DNA of 44,339 nt. It comes from a virus. Its lineage: Duplodnaviria; Heunggongvirae; Uroviricota; Caudoviricetes. Each line of letters starts with the position of its first letter. Position 1 is the stretch's first letter. Positions 2,713 through 9,641 of the stretch are shown here, one piece after another. The stretch lies in the IMG/VR virus record IMGVR_UViG_2923286960_000001; one strand, 5' to 3'. The notes beneath the pieces are model-generated. The model saw only the letters and a list, made by a program, of their open reading frames with translations. It was not told the DNA's origin and did no database searches. Position numbers and translations under genes: made by a program.

Positions 2713-3537
2713 TCAGGCGGTGAAAGTACCAATAAAGGTTTCTACTTTGCTGTCTTTGAATTTCTCAACAAGCAGATCACGAAATTCGTTAGCCATTTCT
2801 TCCTGCACCGCTTCCAGCTGAATAATGCGCAGAACCAGTACAGGACGATCGCCAGTGATAATGCTGAGGCGTAATTTAAACGGACGTTCTTTCAGACCTT
2901 CAAACGGAACGCATTTAAATTCAAATGCCACTGGCATAATGTCTTTGGTCTTCGCTTCGACAGACTCCATCAGGGAGCGTTTGCCGCTGAAGTCATTATC
3001 TTCAAAATCAGCGGTCTGGTTTGCTTCAATCGTGATTTTACGGACTGCCGCAGCCGCTTTTGTTGCTTGAATGGCGTCACCATTAGCATCAAAGCCCACA
3101 AGGTAGTCGGCCCAGTCTTCGATCCATTCTGCCAGTGACCTCTGGGAGTTACGCTCGCCGTTAACAGACAACAGAGCAGAGAACGGTGCTGTCTTTTTCA
3201 GTTTGAGAGTGGCAGTGTTATCTGCGTGACCTGGCTCATCAATAGTACCCAGGTTAAGCACACTGACGGCACGCATATTATCGGCATCGATAAAGCAGCG
3301 GGTGCCTTCATCTGCAAGATCTTTAGAATAACGGGTAAAATCATCGATGCTGGCAGTGGAAAGTGCACCACGGAAACGGAAGCGATTTAAATTAAATTTT
3401 TCCAGATCATGAATGCGGAAATTCTCAGGCAATGCCACAGCATCGGCACCAATCTTACTGATAATTTCATTAACACCCTGAGCAGAAATAAGGGCATGGA
3501 TTTGATTAATTGCGGTTGCGTCTAAGTTCTGAGACAT
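2713..3537 (-). CDS. yfdQ: uncharacterised prophage protein (274 aa, YfdQ/DUF2303-like)
   Basis: ORF with GAGGAC SD-like sequence; length and sequence recalled as YfdQ-like. Confidence 0.65.
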
Positions 3538-3602
3538 AATAAGTCCTCACTATATAAAGATATTCAGTGATGAGATAAATAATCAGTTTATTACGAACGA
3601 TA

Positions 3603-3965
3603 TTAACGACCTGCTGCGCGGAGTTTTCCGTCAGGTTCACCGGCAAGAGTCAGTAATTGTCCCTGGTCTTCCTGCAGAATAGTCAGGCGACCACCGCGAT
3701 TGACATACATCGGCGTTTCGGTGGTGTCTTCTTCGGAAATTTTCCCGCGGTTAGTTGGGCGAACATATGAGAGTTTGTGTTTGATTTTCACACGGTTCTC
3801 ATCAAACGGTTCGATTTCCAGATTGAGTGAGACCTTCCCTTTGGTTTTCGTGTTCATCACACCGGAAGCGACCTCACTGAGAACTGCGCCGATTTTGGTT
3901 TCAAATACGCCGCCGTCCAGCTCCCCGATAAATGCCTGCACATCAGTACTGCGTTCGCTAGCCAT
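3603..3965 (-). CDS. hypothetical early prophage protein (120 aa, YfdP-like)
   Basis: Start at MASERSTDVQ with AGGAG 8 nt upstream; the longer ORF to 4151 lacks an SD and is Arg/Cys-rich. Confidence 0.6.
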   Translation of the reverse strand: MASERSTDVQAFIGELDGGVFETKIGAVLSEVASGVMNTKTKGKVSLNLEIEPFDENRVKIKHKLSYVRPTNRGKISEEDTTETPMYVNRGGRLTILQEDQGQLLTLAGEPDGKLRAAGR

Positions 3966-4426
3966 TTTGCTGCTCCTCATCATATCGACCCTGCAAGGTC
4001 GGTTGGTTTCTCCACAAAACAGAGAAGAACACCTGCGGTGGCAGCCGCCCGGATGGATTGGGTTATGAGCCCGTCGTCCGGTGATGCTCTTCTCTGTTTT
4101 GTAAAAAGAGCGGTGCCAGCCGGAAGCAAGTGTACAAACTGGTACCGCCAAAGCAGTGGCTGTTGTGGTGCCGGGTGCCTCCCGGTGCCTGGCGAAGGTT
4201 GCACACCAGGCGGGTGGGTATCCACAGAAGGTCGACTGTCAGCCTCAACCTTAACCCGCGTGCGCTGAGCCGCATTCACCACAACGCTAAGGATTCTCTC
4301 TGGTTGAAAATACTTAGCTGTTATGTGCCTGCTTTTAGCCACATCAGGCGAGGTGGACCTGGTTATTCCCCAACAACAAGGATTCGGTTAATCTTGATAC
4401 CCCCAATAACATGGTGATTATTTAAG

Positions 4427-4930
4427 ATGGACAAATTTGATAGAAGTGCACAAAGGCAGTTGTTACAAATACTGTATGATGCTCATCCTTATGAAATTTC
4501 TGATGATGCGTTGCAGTCTGTTCGTGACGCATTTGGAGATGATAATGTCCTAATTTCGAACTTAATTTATCTCGAAGAACATGGCTTGATTAAGAATGCT
4601 CTTGATTATTACTTGGATGGCATAAATATAAATATTCCTGAATTAAGAATTACTAAAGATGGAATTGATTTCATTCGTGATGATGGAGGTCTTAAAGCTA
4701 TTCTTGGGATTATGACAATAAGATTGCATGATGAGACTCTCTGTGAACTTGAACGTATCATCAATAGTTCTACTTCTGCCACGACTGAAGATAAGAAGAA
4801 ATTACTCTCTCAGCTTCGAACGCTTCCTGCCGACGCCATAAAACAGCTGACGATTCGATTACTTGGTCAGGGGCTTGACCATCTGCCGGACGTATTTCAC
4901 GTAATTCAAAAAGCCCTCCATTCTCTGTAA
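4427..4930 (+). CDS. hypothetical protein (167 aa), AT-rich moron of unknown function
   Basis: 504-nt ORF in low-GC DNA where stop codons should be frequent; globular-looking sequence; followed by an intrinsic terminator at 5108-5134. Confidence 0.5.
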   Translation: MDKFDRSAQRQLLQILYDAHPYEISDDALQSVRDAFGDDNVLISNLIYLEEHGLIKNALDYYLDGININIPELRITKDGIDFIRDDGGLKAILGIMTIRLHDETLCELERIINSSTSATTEDKKKLLSQLRTLPADAIKQLTIRLLGQGLDHLPDVFHVIQKALHSL

Positions 4931-5107
4931 ATTCTGATTCTGGTCGGATTAGACAGAATCGTCCCCATCCGACCTGCTTACTAAGTAGAATCCAGAATTC
5001 GTCTTGTTGGTTGGTGCTGATAAAAAATCCATTAGGATGAACGTAAGCACAGAATATGACCATAGAACCCTCTTTTGTTACGGGGATACTAAGATTGTTA
5101 AAGAGCT

Positions 5108-5134
5108 AAGCGTCCTGTAGGGCGCTTTTTTGTT
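5108..5134 (+). terminator. rho-independent terminator downstream of the 167-aa ORF
   Basis: Hairpin AAGCGTCC-tgta-GGGCGCTT followed by TTTTTTGTTG. Confidence 0.55.
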
Positions 5135-5219
5135 GCTAACGAATCATCCGGTCATTCATACGCCACCGGCGGCTACTTCGTGGGCGTCCTGCCTGTCCGT
5201 GATAGCTTACATTATGTTG

Positions 5220-5232
5220 CTACTTAAAGTAG
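5220..5232. promoter_or_regulatory. candidate OL operator (perfect 13-bp palindrome CTACTTAAAGTAG)
   Basis: Same half-site (CTAYTT/AAGTAG) as the two repeats between cI and cro; a second inverted repeat lies at 5240-5268 (CAACAACAAA-n9-TTTGTTGTTG). Confidence 0.45.
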
Positions 5233-5410
5233 CAAAAATCAACAACAAAAAGTAGATATTTGTTGTTGTCTATGATTTTTCTATAATTAATTGAAAGTTA
5301 AATGTTTTTGCTGATTTACTATGCTGTAAACTGAAAATATCGCACGAAGTTGGAGTAGGTATTGAGCATAGTGAATTATGAGGAGGGAGTTTTTTATGAG
5401 ATTAATCAGG

Positions 5411-5446
5411 GAGAAAGAAGAGGAAAGCCCGGTTATGCGGCCGGGC
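5411..5446 (-). terminator. candidate terminator after the ParA-like gene
   Basis: GCCCGG-n8-CCGGGC hairpin right after the stop, followed on the minus strand by a U/C-rich tract. Confidence 0.35.
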
Positions 5447-5453
5447 ACATGCA

Positions 5454-6530
5454 TTACTTTGTAAGTTCTAGAACTCGTTGAGCCAGCCCTTTAAATTGTT
5501 CGTTAAAGGCGTCTCTGCTTGATTTCATTGTATTTAAGGCATGCCCAAATTGCCCTGAATCGCGAATTTGCTGATCACTGATGGAGAAAACAGGTGTCGC
5601 TAGTTGTTGGCTTATTGCGATTAATGAGTTGAAATCGGAAATATGCGCAAGATCATAGGCTGATAAATCTCCACTGACTGTTGTTTTGTTAATTGCATGT
5701 TGCACTTTATCTCGTGGAATTATGCAGGTAATTTTTTCTAGATTTGGCACTAAGATCGAATCAACAGCATCACGGATAGCTGCCATCCATTTTTCGAAAG
5801 ATTTTACAGGTGCTCCTTTACGCGGCCTGTATCTCTGCTGAATCATACCTAGAAACTGCGGTGCATTTTTAATTGATTGTGAAGAGTTACCATCATTATT
5901 TTCTTTAAATAATGCTAATTCTTTGTGCCAGCGAGGTATATTTTTTGAGAGAGAGCGAATTGCTTGCCAGCAAAAAAAGTCTGGAGCTACAGGTACGATA
6001 AAATAGTCACTTGACATGAGAACTACTTCATTTAAACCTCCAACATTAGGGCTGAGATCATAAAGAATGTAATCAATATTATTCTTCATGGCGATTAGCT
6101 GTAATATTTTTGGCAGGTTCCCTGGTATATTTCTTGTAGCAGGAATACCAGCAGCAATTTTTAGAGAAACACTTATCTGTGAATCTAAGTCCGAAACATC
6201 TAAATGTCCGGGAAGAAGCAGAAGGTTTTCATGCAGTGTAGGGTGTAATTTTCCCGTTTCTTTTTCAAGGTATGCTTCAGGTTGTCCGCCATTAATCAAA
6301 TATTCTACAATAGGTCCAAGAGTTAAGTTATCTCTGCTAGAATAAAAAGAATCTAAACCCTCATCAATCTTTTCATAGCCAAGAACCATTCCTGTTAGAT
6401 TACATTGCGAATCAAGGTCAACCATCAATACTTTCTTGCCTTCATCCGCAAGTGCCCATCCAAGATTGAAGGTTGTTGTGGTTTTACTTACCCCACCTTT
6501 ATGATTAAAAAAACAAATTGATTTTGTCAT
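5454..6530 (-). CDS. ParA/MinD-family P-loop ATPase with about 100-aa C-terminal extension (orphan, no ParB)
   Basis: Deviant Walker A KGGVSKTT at residues 11-18, A' motif MVDLDSQ, Walker B-like DYILYDLSPN; AAGGA SD; low GC; lies downstream of cI on the same strand. Confidence 0.85.
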   Translation of the reverse strand: MTKSICFFNHKGGVSKTTTTFNLGWALADEGKKVLMVDLDSQCNLTGMVLGYEKIDEGLDSFYSSRDNLTLGPIVEYLINGGQPEAYLEKETGKLHPTLHENLLLLPGHLDVSDLDSQISVSLKIAAGIPATRNIPGNLPKILQLIAMKNNIDYILYDLSPNVGGLNEVVLMSSDYFIVPVAPDFFCWQAIRSLSKNIPRWHKELALFKENNDGNSSQSIKNAPQFLGMIQQRYRPRKGAPVKSFEKWMAAIRDAVDSILVPNLEKITCIIPRDKVQHAINKTTVSGDLSAYDLAHISDFNSLIAISQQLATPVFSISDQQIRDSGQFGHALNTMKSSRDAFNEQFKGLAQRVLELTK

Positions 6531-6700
6531 ATTTCTCTATCCTTTCGACCCCCAGCATATTGTAATTTACGCTGGGTGATTATTTTATATTGTTAATGAT
6601 AATGTTTAATAAAAATAAGAGAGTAAAACAACTATTAGTAATAGCACTTGCTTGATAAATATTATTTTTTCACCTTTAGTTCTATAGTCTAAACGAAGAA

Positions 6701-7441
6701 CTAAAGCCGGTTGTATTTAATTGATTCGTGTATCAATGCTTTGCCCATAACATAAAGTTGATCTTGGGACTTCTCATCAATGTACCATTTCTCATAGGCT
6801 GGATTATCCGAAAGAACGGCGAGTTTGTTGCCTTGCATTTGTAGACGTTTAACGTGGAACGTCTTACCATAAACGAAAGAGTAAACACCATCAGTTTGGA
6901 AGTTGCGAACAGAAATGTCGACAAACAGTCGATCTCCGGAAACTAGAGTAGGGGACATGCTGTCGCCATTTACAGTCATAACTTTAATATCATCTTGAGA
7001 ACGATTACCGAAAAGAGAACGGGCATGCTCTGTTGTGAACTCAATGGCGTAGAGCACATCAACATAGTCTGAAAGCATATAGGTTCCAGGTCCTGCGCTA
7101 ACGCTAAGATCCAAAACTTCTATCCTGTATACATCGGGTTTTGTTGGATTGGGGATGCTTGCCATTTCCTTACATCCTTCTCTCTCGCCAACACCATATT
7201 CTAAATATGAAGCTGATACCCCCAGAGCCAATGCAAGTTTATTCATGACAGAGGCACGAGGCTTCGCAGCGCCGATTGTGTATCGCCGCGCCATTTCATA
7301 TGTAACGCCCACAAGACTTTTGAGTTGGGTGACAGAAATTCCCTTGTTTGTCATTAGCTCGTTTAGTCTCTTGGCGAAATCTGGATACTTCTGTTCTTCT
7401 ACCATAGGTAGAAGGTTACTCGCATCACATACGCTAGTCAT
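6701..7441 (-). CDS. cI: CI-like prophage repressor (HTH plus S24 LexA-like autopeptidase domain)
   Basis: N-terminal HTH (ISVTQLKSLVGVTYEMARRY), C-terminal Ser/Lys dyad (VNGDSMSPTL ... VKRL). Start uncertain: ATGs at 7462, 7441 and 7405; 7441 chosen because it abuts the operator repeats (leaderless PRM-like). Confidence 0.8.
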   Translation of the reverse strand: MTSVCDASNLLPMVEEQKYPDFAKRLNELMTNKGISVTQLKSLVGVTYEMARRYTIGAAKPRASVMNKLALALGVSASYLEYGVGEREGCKEMASIPNPTKPDVYRIEVLDLSVSAGPGTYMLSDYVDVLYAIEFTTEHARSLFGNRSQDDIKVMTVNGDSMSPTLVSGDRLFVDISVRNFQTDGVYSFVYGKTFHVKRLQMQGNKLAVLSDNPAYEKWYIDEKSQDQLYVMGKALIHESIKYNRL

Positions 7442-7443
7442 TT

Positions 7444-7479
7444 CTATTTTAAGTAGTTGCATTCTGCTATTTTAAGTAG
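7444..7479. promoter_or_regulatory. OR-like operator repeats between cI and cro
   Basis: Two copies of CTATTTTAAGTAG (7444-7456, 7467-7479); a further palindrome CCTCTGAATTTCAGAGG at 7487-7503 just upstream of the cro SD. Confidence 0.5.
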
Positions 7480-7511
7480 CATCATCCCTCTGAATTTCAG
7501 AGGAGAAAGGT

Positions 7512-7775
7512 ATGTCATCTCAAAACTACACAGAGAAAGCAGTAAAAGCTGCGGGAAAATCTTTATCTGAAGTAGCCCGTCACTTTGGTTTTAAGTCCAC
7601 TCAATCCGTCGCTAATTGGGTAATTAACAATCAAGTCCCGTCAGAACGGGTTTTACAACTTTGTGAGTTGGGAAACTGGTCCGTGACCCCTCATGAACTG
7701 CGTCCTGATATTTACCCCAATCCAAATGATGGATTACCTGAGTGCTATTCAAAAGTTAGCGGTTCAGCTGCGTAA
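7512..7775 (+). CDS. cro: Cro-like HTH regulator (YdaS-like)
   Basis: 87-aa ORF divergent from cI, GAGGAG SD; HTH segment LSEVARHFGFKSTQSVANW. Confidence 0.75.
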   Translation: MSSQNYTEKAVKAAGKSLSEVARHFGFKSTQSVANWVINNQVPSERVLQLCELGNWSVTPHELRPDIYPNPNDGLPECYSKVSGSAA

Positions 7776-7803
7776 ACGTAACCACAGAAACGAGGAGTTA
7801 ACC

Positions 7804-8355
7804 GTGGGTAAGCATCACTGGAAAATAGAAAAACAGCCTGAGTGGTACGTGAAAGCTGTCAGAAAAACTATCGCAGCGTTGCCGGGGGGTTACGCTGAAG
7901 CTGCTGACTGGCTGGACGTAACAGAGAACGCATTATTTAACCGCCTTCGTGCCGATGGCGATCAGATTTTCCCGCTGGGATGGGCAATGGTTTTACAGCG
8001 TGCTGGTGGCACTCACTTCATTGCTGATGCTGTGGCGCAGTCTGCAAATGGCGTATTTGTGTCTCTTCCTGACGTCGAGGATGTGGACAACGCCGATATT
8101 AACCAGCGTCTGCTGGAAGTCATTGAACAGATCGGCAGTTATTCAAAACAGATTCGTTCAGCAATCGAAGACGGTGTAGTGGAACCGCATGAGAAGACAG
8201 CAATTAACGACGAGCTGTATCTCTCAATTTCGAAGCTGCAGGAGCATGCAGCACTGGTCTACAAAATCTTTTGCATTTCAGAAAGTAATGACGCCCGCGA
8301 GTGTGCAGCTCCGGGCGCCGTGGCGTGTCGTGACTGTGGAGAAACTAACGCATGA
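7804..8355 (+). CDS. CII-like early regulatory protein (YdaT-like)
   Basis: GTG start with GAGGAG 6 nt upstream, just after the cro stop; the ORF track start at 7693 overlaps cro and lacks an SD. Confidence 0.6.
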
Positions 8356-8690
8356 ACAGTTTAACAACACACTACCGTCGCTCGCAACTGATTGCGCTTC
8401 CTGTACCGGGTGGAAAAGCGAAGGTGGAATATTGCTATGCAGTGAATGTACCAGGTGACAGGGAAATTGTAACCCACAGCTTTGCTGAGTGGGCTGTGGG
8501 TGATTTCAACCGGCAGAAGGAGACAGTCCTTTGCGACAAGTTAACCGCTGGTTCAAAGATCACTACGGAGTGCCCGTCAGAGTCATTCGTTGGGAACCGG
8601 AAACACAACGTGTTATCTACCTCCGCGAAGGCTATGAGCATGAGTGCTTCAGCCCGCTCGAACAGTTTCGTCGTAAATTCAGGGAAATAG
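8352..8690 (+). CDS. hypothetical protein; probably frameshifted or two overlapping small genes (see findings)
   Basis: ATG overlaps the upstream stop (ATGA); translation becomes low-complexity after about residue 60, while the +2 frame from TTG 8531 (AAGGAG SD) to 8710 reads protein-like. Confidence 0.35.
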
Positions 8691-8699
8691 AGGTCGGTC

Positions 8700-9641
8700 A
8701 TGAGCACTAAATTAACCGGCTATGTATGGGATGGTTGCGCTGCATCAGGCATGAAATTATCCAGCGTGGCAATTATGGCCCGCCTGGCTGATTTCAGTAA
8801 TGACGAAGGTGTGTGCTGGCCATCAATTGAAACCATTGCCCGCCAGATTGGCGCGGGGATGAGTACCGTCAGAACGGCTATCGCATGGCTGGAAGCAGAA
8901 GGCTGGTTAACGCGTAGGGCGCGTCGCCAGGGTAACCGCAATGCGTCGAATGTTTATCAGCTTAACGTTGCGAAGCTTCAGGCAGCGGCATTTTCTCAAC
9001 TGTCAGATTCTGACCCGTCAAAATCTGACGCATCAAAATCTGACCCGTCAAAATTTGATGCGTCGAAATCTGGCAAAAAAGCGGGTTTTCACCCGTCAGA
9101 ATCTGGTGGGGATCCGTCAGTAAAATCAAAACATGATCCGTCAGATAAAAAAACTTCTCGTCCGGACGCTTCGCAACCGGACACGCAGACGGCTGAACAG
9201 GATTTTTTAACTCGCCATCCTGATGCGGTTGTATTCAGCCCTAAAAAGCGCCAGTGGGGGACGCAGGATGATTTGACCTGCGCACAGTGGCTCTGGAAAA
9301 AAATCATCGCCCTGTACGAGCATGCCGCCGAATGTGACGGCGAGGTGGTTCGTCCCAAAGAACCGAACTGGATAGCCTGGGCAAACGAAATTCGCCTGAT
9401 GTGTGTGCAGGATGGTCGTACTCATAAACAAATCTGCGAGATGTACAGCCGCGTCAGTCGCGATCCGTTCTGGTGCCGTAACGTGCTCAGCCCGTCGAAG
9501 CTGCGGGAAAAATGGGATGAGCTTTCCCTGCGCTTATCGCCGTCCGTCAGCACGTACACCGAAAAACGCGAAGACCCGTACTTCAAAGCCAGTTACGACA
9601 ACGTGGACTACAGCCAGATCCCGGCAGGATTCAGGGGGTGA
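8700..9641 (+). CDS. replication initiator (lambda O-like, N-terminal HTH; contains the origin iterons)
   Basis: 313-aa ORF; N-terminal HTH region (CWPSIETIARQIGAGMSTVRTAIAWLEAEGW); internal tandem repeats encode SKSD-type peptide repeats. Confidence 0.75.
   Translation: MSTKLTGYVWDGCAASGMKLSSVAIMARLADFSNDEGVCWPSIETIARQIGAGMSTVRTAIAWLEAEGWLTRRARRQGNRNASNVYQLNVAKLQAAAFSQLSDSDPSKSDASKSDPSKFDASKSGKKAGFHPSESGGDPSVKSKHDPSDKKTSRPDASQPDTQTAEQDFLTRHPDAVVFSPKKRQWGTQDDLTCAQWLWKKIIALYEHAAECDGEVVRPKEPNWIAWANEIRLMCVQDGRTHKQICEMYSRVSRDPFWCRNVLSPSKLREKWDELSLRLSPSVSTYTEKREDPYFKASYDNVDYSQIPAGFRG
9011..9070. repeat. four tandem 15-bp iterons (candidate ori) inside the O-like gene
   Basis: TGACCCGTCAAAATC / TGACGCATCAAAATC / TGACCCGTCAAAATT / TGATGCGTCGAAATC, followed by an A-rich stretch and degenerate copies to about 9140. 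Confidence 0.55.

Follow-up and report, generated by a model that had tools for sequence, protein, structure and literature searches.

We wanted to know what a ParA/MinD-like ATPase gene could be doing beside the repressor gene of a lambdoid prophage. The question is raised by a stretch of 44,339 nucleotides (hereafter the window, that is, the whole stretch analysed) from a virus of the Caudoviricetes, IMG/VR record IMGVR_UViG_2923286960_000001. The window is 100% identical to positions 624238-668576 of the chromosome of Escherichia coli NCTC86, where the lambdoid prophage lies at tRNA-Arg next to intD (the DLP12 site). At 5454..6530, on the minus strand, it carries a solitary gene for an ATPase of the ParA/Soj fold, identified from the open reading frame (ORF) list, Pfam, PHROG and NCBIfam scans, a family alignment, and a structure model with fold searches. 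We lean, with modest confidence, towards an accessory ('moron') gene of the immunity region, expressed in the lysogen, whose product would be a single-gene, ATP-dependent switch of the ParA type protecting the host and the prophage from other phages. A preliminary description of this DNA, made from the letters alone, had already put the gene forward as a candidate for lysogen-expressed exclusion or defence. That proposal is now supported, circumstantially: the slot is confirmed, and two ParA-like ATPases occupying the same slot in Gifsy prophages protect against phages.

The ORF of 358 aa was found as first described, with the motifs KGGVSKTT, DLDSQ and DYILYDLSP all present. The protein has a deviant Walker A motif (K11-G-G-V-S-K16-T-T), a Walker A' motif (D38-L-D40) and a Walker B motif (D158). 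Its residues 3-204 match the Pfam family AAA_31 (E 2e-29) and residues 1-356 match PHROG 164, 'ParA-like partition protein'. The NCBIfam scan returned 21 matches, all of them far below the curated cut-offs and covering little beyond the P-loop. The PADLOC, NCBIfam and PHROG scans together yielded generic ParA names only. In an alignment of 25 sequences from several classes, K11, K16, T17, D38, D40 and D158 were invariant. Since these are catalytic and dimer residues, the protein is very likely an active ATPase forming an ATP-sandwich dimer, a state that is established for ParA/MinD proteins.

The preliminary description had given this protein a separate C-terminal extension of about 100 aa, and it had proposed searches of both the core and the C-terminal part with hidden Markov models (HMMs) and structures. 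These searches were run and assigned the whole protein to the ParA fold with no other domain. The extension did not hold: the ParA/Soj fold reaches the C-terminus, and the roughly 100 residues are insertions, which make the protein about 100 residues longer than ParA proteins of canonical ParABS systems and of type Ib plasmid partition. The motif DFNSLIAISQ and the long last helix are the usual ParA C-terminus, and the structure model drew helix 330-357 as the long terminal helix of a ParA core. The family profile matched DIP2308 of Corynebacterium diphtheriae (PDB 3pg5, a structural-genomics entry) with an E-value of 1.6e-27 over residues 3-322. DIP2308 shares about 25% identity with our protein, but it is uncharacterised and therefore gives no guide to function. 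Other fold matches include FleN, FlhG, MinD and McdA, and a viral fold search in BFVD gave no informative match. One of the insertions carries a loop at residues 118-140 (ISVSLKIAxGIPATRNIPGNLP) that is specific to the family, almost invariant and modelled with low confidence. We take this loop to be the likeliest interaction surface of the protein.

The gene had been placed directly downstream of cI, on the same strand, between the repressor and a candidate left operator (OL), and operators found on either side bear this out. The cI-like repressor gene has helix-turn-helix (HTH_3) and Peptidase_S24 domains by Pfam and PHROG scans. It occupies 6701..7405 on the minus strand with the start given by the Prokaryotic Genome Annotation Pipeline (PGAP), or 6701..7462 from the first ATG, and a 170 bp gap separates it from the ATPase gene. 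In the repeat search, a 17-bp palindrome, TGCTACTTAAAGTAGCA, at 5218-5234 recurred twice between cI and cro, at 7465-7481 as TGCTATTTTAAGTAGCA and at 7444-7456 as CTATTTTAAGTAG, which makes the candidate OL real. OL (5214..5259; repeat family D5, inverted repeat I1) contains the palindrome and, about 23 bp beyond it, a second half-site copy, and the right operator OR, between cI and cro (7440..7485; families D5 and D13, inverted repeat I1), contains two copies 23 bp apart. Inverted repeat I1 relates the OL and OR regions over 46 nt at 78%. Since these operators flank the cI-ParA unit, the immunity region includes the ATPase gene, which stands between cI and OL.

The expression signals read earlier from the letters were also found. 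A Shine-Dalgarno sequence, AAGGA (6540..6544, minus strand), was read from the sequence at 6544-6540, 9 nt ahead of the ATG at 6530. A terminator scan detected a G+C-rich hairpin of six pairs with a T-rich tail (GCCCGG-N8-CCGGGC followed by TTTCCTCTTC; 5427..5446, minus strand), running from 5446 to 5427 and beginning 7 nt past the stop. By its placement, this hairpin would stop the cI-ParA transcript ahead of OL; in lambda, the terminator tImm ends the transcript before OL. The same scan detected no terminator-like site between cI and the ATPase gene. Past the ATPase stop there is a single ORF, of 55 codons, which spans the hairpin and is conserved in identical loci only, and Rfam gave no match in the window. 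The G+C content of the gene is low, as had been noticed (0.377, against 0.514 for the window); it is also low in cI (0.433) and in a convergent gene at 4427-4930 (0.379).

The ATPase gene may in addition have a promoter of its own, at a -10-like motif, TATAAAAT (6582..6589, minus strand), that came out of an upstream alignment of 10 loci. The reason for proposing it is that a TATAAAAT-like motif also precedes orthologues lying behind different repressors, as if the motif travelled with the gene. A consensus scan placed a promoter-like site at 6608-6579, but sigma-70-like sites in 4200-7800 were no commoner than in shuffled sequences; it is therefore the conserved TATAAAAT motif, and not the scan, that carries the proposal. 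Between this motif and the Shine-Dalgarno sequence, just 5' of the latter, the sequence holds a leader hairpin (CCCAGC-N14-GCTGGG; 6551..6576, minus strand). It is an insertion specific to the E. coli version and is absent from the other aligned loci.

One positional model is lambda rexAB, which shares with our gene the slot between repressor and OL, the strand of the repressor and a terminator ahead of OL. The two differ in that there is no relation in sequence or fold, the whole of our protein being a ParA fold, and in that a single gene stands here in place of the rexA/rexB pair. Other exclusion genes expressed in lysogens from beside the repressor are sieB of P22 and bstA of BTP1. A solitary ParA-like defence gene beside a prophage repressor is itself a kind that was published in November 2025 (PMC12724215). 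This is GiPD474, a 361-aa ParA-like single gene located beside repressor, cro and cII in the Gifsy-1 prophage of Salmonella Typhimurium 4/74 (Bosma, Noireaux & Bowden 2025; PMC12724215). Deletion and complementation showed that it blocks phage Felix O1 (FO1), and in E. coli K-12 the reduction was about 5 logs for T4 and about 5.5 logs for Alf5, while T7 and SP6 were unaffected (PMC12724215).

We compared our gene with GiPD474 and with RemA, whose sequences were recovered via the published primers (the first RemAIN primer had no match in IMG/VR, the second matched). Like GiPD474, the window gene is a single gene of about 360 codons with a ParA/MinD fold and a Pfam AAA_31 match, and it lies in a lambdoid immunity region with repressor, cro and cII and with an integrase further on. 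Here the cro-like regulator, with a YdaS-type helix-turn-helix (7512..7775, plus strand; Pfam scan), is divergent from cI and forms the right edge of the immunity region; the cII-like gene (7693-8355) and the integrase gene (1-1164) were located from the ORF list, Pfam scan and PGAP annotation. Both families are highly conserved and sporadic across many bacteria, and the two proteins are colinear over nearly their full length (BLASTP, 8-342 against 25-350). They differ in that identity is only 22% over 335 residues (pairwise E 1e-13), far below the criterion used by the GiPD474 authors for homologues (at least 70% identity with at least 70% coverage). They differ also in that GiPD474 reads NNKGGVGKTF where our protein reads NHKGGVSKTT, in the loop at 118-140, which is specific to the window family, and in that the GiPD474 family matches DIP2308 weakly whereas ours does so over its full length. 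When family profiles were compared, hhalign aligned ours with that of GiPD474 at a probability of 99% (E 3e-18, 310 columns, 21% identity) and with a canonical chromosomal ParA at E 1e-16 over 211 columns. Membership of the GiPD474 family was rejected on identity and on these profile scores.

The RemAIN prophage competition element of Gifsy-1 (Sargen and Helaine 2024) is reported to comprise RemA, a ParA-like ATPase, RemI, an immunity protein, and RemN, a HEPN nuclease, acting as a unit (PMC13043305). It reportedly blocks the lytic cycles of other prophages in the same host (PMC12724215). Like our gene, remA lies directly downstream of a prophage repressor gene (locus L094). RemA differs from our protein in having 279 aa, of which the first 173-213 residues alone align. 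Identity was 27% over the N-terminal 213 residues, a likeness at the level of the superfamily, and RemA matched our family profile at E 1e-15 over 173 columns. Our gene is followed by a terminator and then OL, with no ORFs of the RemI or RemN type. Membership of the RemA family was rejected, identity being low and the profile score no better than that of canonical ParA. Because these scores lie near those for canonical ParA, GiPD474 and RemA are relatives at the level of the superfamily, and precedents by position and fold and not by family. The window family is probably distinct from both and larger than that of GiPD474.

This larger family was then followed through databases. The exact protein is present on at least 1000 contigs, under generic names only, and no literature on this ATPase family was found, including under its accession WP_000167381. 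Among complete E. coli genomes, 109 of 5426 (2%) carry the gene intact and at least 99% identical, and all 110 of their 110 copies are chromosomal. Homologues of 355-380 aa with 60-65% identity occur in Acinetobacter, Limnohabitans, Desulfovibrio, Chromobacterium, Xanthomonas and others; the figure is 54-56% for those of Akkermansia and Veillonella, while Firmicutes, Bacteroidota, Cyanobacteria and Planctomycetota have homologues at 40-45%. When 1.84 billion representative proteins were scanned, 275 clusters (at 50% identity) reached E 1e-30 or better; at the looser threshold of E 1e-10 there were 4675. Confirmed matches numbered 244 across the 185,579 species genomes searched, and 86 viral contigs carry the family.

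For the neighbourhoods, ORFs around 82 genome-derived and 80 viral loci were clustered all against all. No conserved neighbour or partner gene emerged in these roughly 160 loci, and the idea of a hidden partner gene was rejected since neither locus set gave one. A Pfam census of 106 immediate neighbours returned housekeeping genes, three S24 repressors and assorted ATPases; ParB and HEPN were not recurrent. Co-occurrence with cI-like repressors, proposed earlier as a check, was found in part: a helix-turn-helix/S24 repressor gene stands on the same strand at most three genes upstream in 11 of 38 non-redundant IMG/VR groups (10 of 22 at 55% identity or above), while other copies occupy slots outside immunity regions. 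These repressors belong to several types and differ in length. Gene order in ST160 and SE1, two P22-like phages of Salmonella, runs c2, DUF3024, ParA-like gene, gene 24. The DUF3024 gene between repressor and ParA-like gene was seen in ST160/SE1 and in one other prophage lineage (L001, 3521-3862; also L117 and L132/L135/L162), but not in the window or in most of the other loci. Other viral copies follow a RecT, endolysin or baseplate gene, one lies near the integrase of a Helicobacter prophage and another near the attachment (att) site of an inovirus Pf1 prophage. The relatives thus occupy slots where phages keep accessory ('moron') genes. Among the immediate neighbours in 78 genome loci are some known defence proteins, namely a full-length GajA (E 7e-198), DolB twice and mad3/mad8 of MADS, and also MzaA, PDC-S21 and PD-T4-2_A; on a Pantoea plasmid, an Abi family gene lies near the ParA-like gene. 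In a metagenomic chromosome-origin region between mnmE and murB (L179), a GiPD474-family gene, a Polbeta-nucleotidyltransferase/HEPN gene and a member of the present family (65% identity) stand side by side (5690-7636 and 4622-5695), with a canonical parA-parB pair, separate, a few genes away.

More distant members are coupled to a second gene. At about 30-35% identity, members overlap a HEPN_RiboL-PSP gene by 1-4 nt. One on a Burkholderia glumae plasmid aligns over its full length (hhalign E 3e-48, 327 columns, 33% identity), shares NHKGGVSKTT and overlaps the HEPN_RiboL-PSP gene by one base; another (P0270, 24 contigs) shares 4 nt with a homologous HEPN gene and belongs to an islet in which a pair of AAA_15/AAA_21 ATPases is also encoded. 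An islet between a tRNA synthetase gene and lacZ (L188, 1836-5718) consists of an AAA_15/AAA_21 ATPase gene, a 208-aa gene and a ParA-like gene overlapping a HEPN_RiboL-PSP gene, and may represent two adjacent defence modules. ParA/Soj-HEPN pairs have been predicted to be toxin-antitoxin-like conflict systems in which the ATPase is the controlling partner, or antitoxin (Anantharaman et al. 2013, PMC3710099). Our family resembles these pairs through its distant true members, with their shared NHKGGVSKTT, full-length alignment and HEPN overlap. It departs from them in that the window gene and its roughly 160 relatives at 37-100% identity are solitary and HEPN is not a recurrent neighbour. In the window itself, neither the ORF list nor the Pfam scan showed a HEPN gene overlapping or adjoining the ATPase gene. 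Fusion to Schlafen and HATPase_c_4 domains was seen in a remoter relative, and bacterial Schlafen nucleases are established anti-phage effectors (PMC13056530). The representative search also returned long ParA-like domains fused to C-terminal cysteine peptidases of the Ulp1/RickCE type with acidic low-complexity tails (P0304, P0322).

How, then, could a lone ATPase protect a lysogen? In the scheme that we propose, the gene would be read together with cI from the maintenance promoter, like rexAB, and perhaps from its own promoter too. ATP binding would bring about the sandwich dimer, as in ParA/MinD proteins, and the dimer would bind a broadly conserved target, most simply DNA, be it the nucleoid or incoming or replicating phage DNA. 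A phage-derived cue would shift the ATPase cycle, and the dimer would block a step after adsorption. A universal target, either DNA/nucleoid or a conserved replication or packaging factor, is favoured because the protein lacks an effector domain and its conservation extends across phyla. Several observations weigh against a defence role of this kind. In PADLOC-DB 2.0.0, no defence model matched over its full length, and the sole match, to PDC-M28B, covered residues 3-40 at the level of the P-loop. No effector domain is present, and Pfam found no other family in the protein. Identities of 60-65% across proteobacterial classes, and of 54-56% to Akkermansia and Veillonella, are atypically high for defence genes, and many chromosomal copies lie between housekeeping genes with no defence neighbour. 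The number of defence neighbours is a raw count, and the profile match to GiPD474 is barely better than that to canonical ParA.

Three other explanations have to be set against this one. A partition ATPase segregating an extrachromosomal form of the element is what the protein's name in PHROGs and in some phage records ('ParA-like partition protein') would imply. It does share with the ParA proteins of canonical ParABS systems and of type Ib plasmid partition (Soj, ParF, delta) the fold, the deviant Walker A motif with its signature lysine, and the Walker A' and B motifs. Unlike these, it is encoded without ParB or parS, in an integrated prophage, and is longer. No ParB or small DNA-binding partner was adjacent in any context inspected, and PGAP annotated no ParB anywhere in the identical NCTC86 prophage. 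There is no repeat array nearby: Tandem Repeats Finder detected no tandem repeats in 3500-9000, and there are no repeats other than the operator palindromes. The prophage encodes an integrase and is located at tRNA-Arg, the E. coli copies are without exception chromosomal, the NCBIfam model ParA_partition scored 55.8 bits against a cut-off of 180 over the P-loop region only, and the metagenomic region L179 keeps its canonical parA-parB pair as separate genes. Plasmid copies were considered as partition genes and rejected, as no ParB was adjacent in the three plasmid loci inspected. The preliminary description had regarded partition as unsupported for want of a ParB partner and a centromere repeat. 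Neither was found in the window prophage or in the roughly 160 related loci. A partition role, which we regard as extremely improbable, is essentially refuted.

A regulator of lysogeny or host physiology, with no direct anti-phage role but acting on the switch of the prophage, on the initiation of replication, on cell division or on the placement of some cell component, is a more serious contender that we still consider unlikely. Soj, MipZ, MinD and FleN regulate DnaA, FtsZ or transcription factors, the ParA/MinD superfamily is rich in such proteins, and FleN, FlhG, MinD and McdA were among our fold matches. Conservation across phyla would fit a conserved cellular target, the ATPase gene is probably in an operon with cI, and RexA is reported to act on the lambda switch (PMC11077077). 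Against this, the ATPase cannot depend on the switch of one phage, since the gene is found behind many unrelated repressors, in phage slots outside immunity regions and in an inovirus, while further copies lie on plasmids or stand by themselves in chromosomes. The neighbour analyses found no conserved MinC, MinE, FleQ or McdB partner, and the sporadic distribution (2% of E. coli; 244 matches in 185,579 species genomes) argues against a housekeeping role. Rather improbable, in our view, is an orphan regulator or antitoxin-like ATPase that neutralises HEPN-based competition elements of the RemAIN type in rival prophages or the host, for counter-defence or self-protection. Its attraction is that genuine members of the family show translational coupling to HEPN_RiboL-PSP genes, that the ParA/Soj partner is a predicted antitoxin (PMC3710099), that RemAIN reportedly blocks the lytic cycles of other prophages in the same host (PMC12724215), and that the ATPase, when solitary, comes without an effector. 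However, the solitary form is the rule in the roughly 160 loci at 37-100% identity, where HEPN does not recur. Many copies are chromosomal and outside any visible phage, some by defence genes, whereas counter-defence would be expected on mobile elements, and solitary GiPD474 alone protects a heterologous host.

Beyond the preferred reading of a lysogen-expressed protective switch, a wider and more tentative idea can be put forward. Long ParA-like ATPases could be a broad class of phage-sensing ATP switches, some of them solitary (GiPD474 and the window family), some coupled to HEPN RNases (RemAIN, and also the RiboL-PSP pairs) and some fused to a Schlafen domain. A solitary ATPase would itself act as the effector: its dimer, with ATP bound, would coat or tether phage DNA or the nucleoid, or would trap a replication or packaging factor that is universally conserved. 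With the ATPase as effector, a universal target would explain the 55-65% identity seen across bacterial phyla.

Other features of the prophage were recorded. The NCTC86 prophage is decayed: the genes for the large terminase and the tape-measure protein are frameshifted, and an IS66-family element breaks a tail gene (about 26.2-28.9 kb). This decay has spared the immunity region and, with it, the ParA-like gene. Just left of OL, the convergent gene at 4427-4930 (plus strand, 167 aa, phrog_3983, no Pfam match, G+C 0.379 as given above) has its own promoter-like site at 4394-4421 and a strong terminator at 5108-5127. It is common to phages SfV, SfII, SfIV and Kati, and looks like a second, independent accessory gene. 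In E. coli WP8-S17-ESBL-12, the same prophage contains an element of about 11 kb inside the major capsid gene (L180, 10241-21277). This element encodes its own integrase, a TIR-domain protein, an Abi family protein, an Icd-like protein, a primase and a single-stranded DNA-binding protein (SSB), together with its own capsid, decoration and small-terminase genes, and resembles a satellite that forms capsids and is loaded with genes for defence.

The slot itself will not surprise a specialist; it is the extreme conservation and the HEPN-coupled relatives that make this family a good experimental target. If it were shown to protect, ParA-type ATPases in prophage immunity regions would be a recurrent theme of defence, with three separate families in one slot. 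Working out how these ATPases act could reveal a block to phages that operates through an ATP switch bound to DNA or to the nucleoid, and would also clarify how their HEPN-coupled relatives are controlled. Such genes affect the phage susceptibility of clinical and food-borne Enterobacteria, as GiPD474 does against Felix O1.

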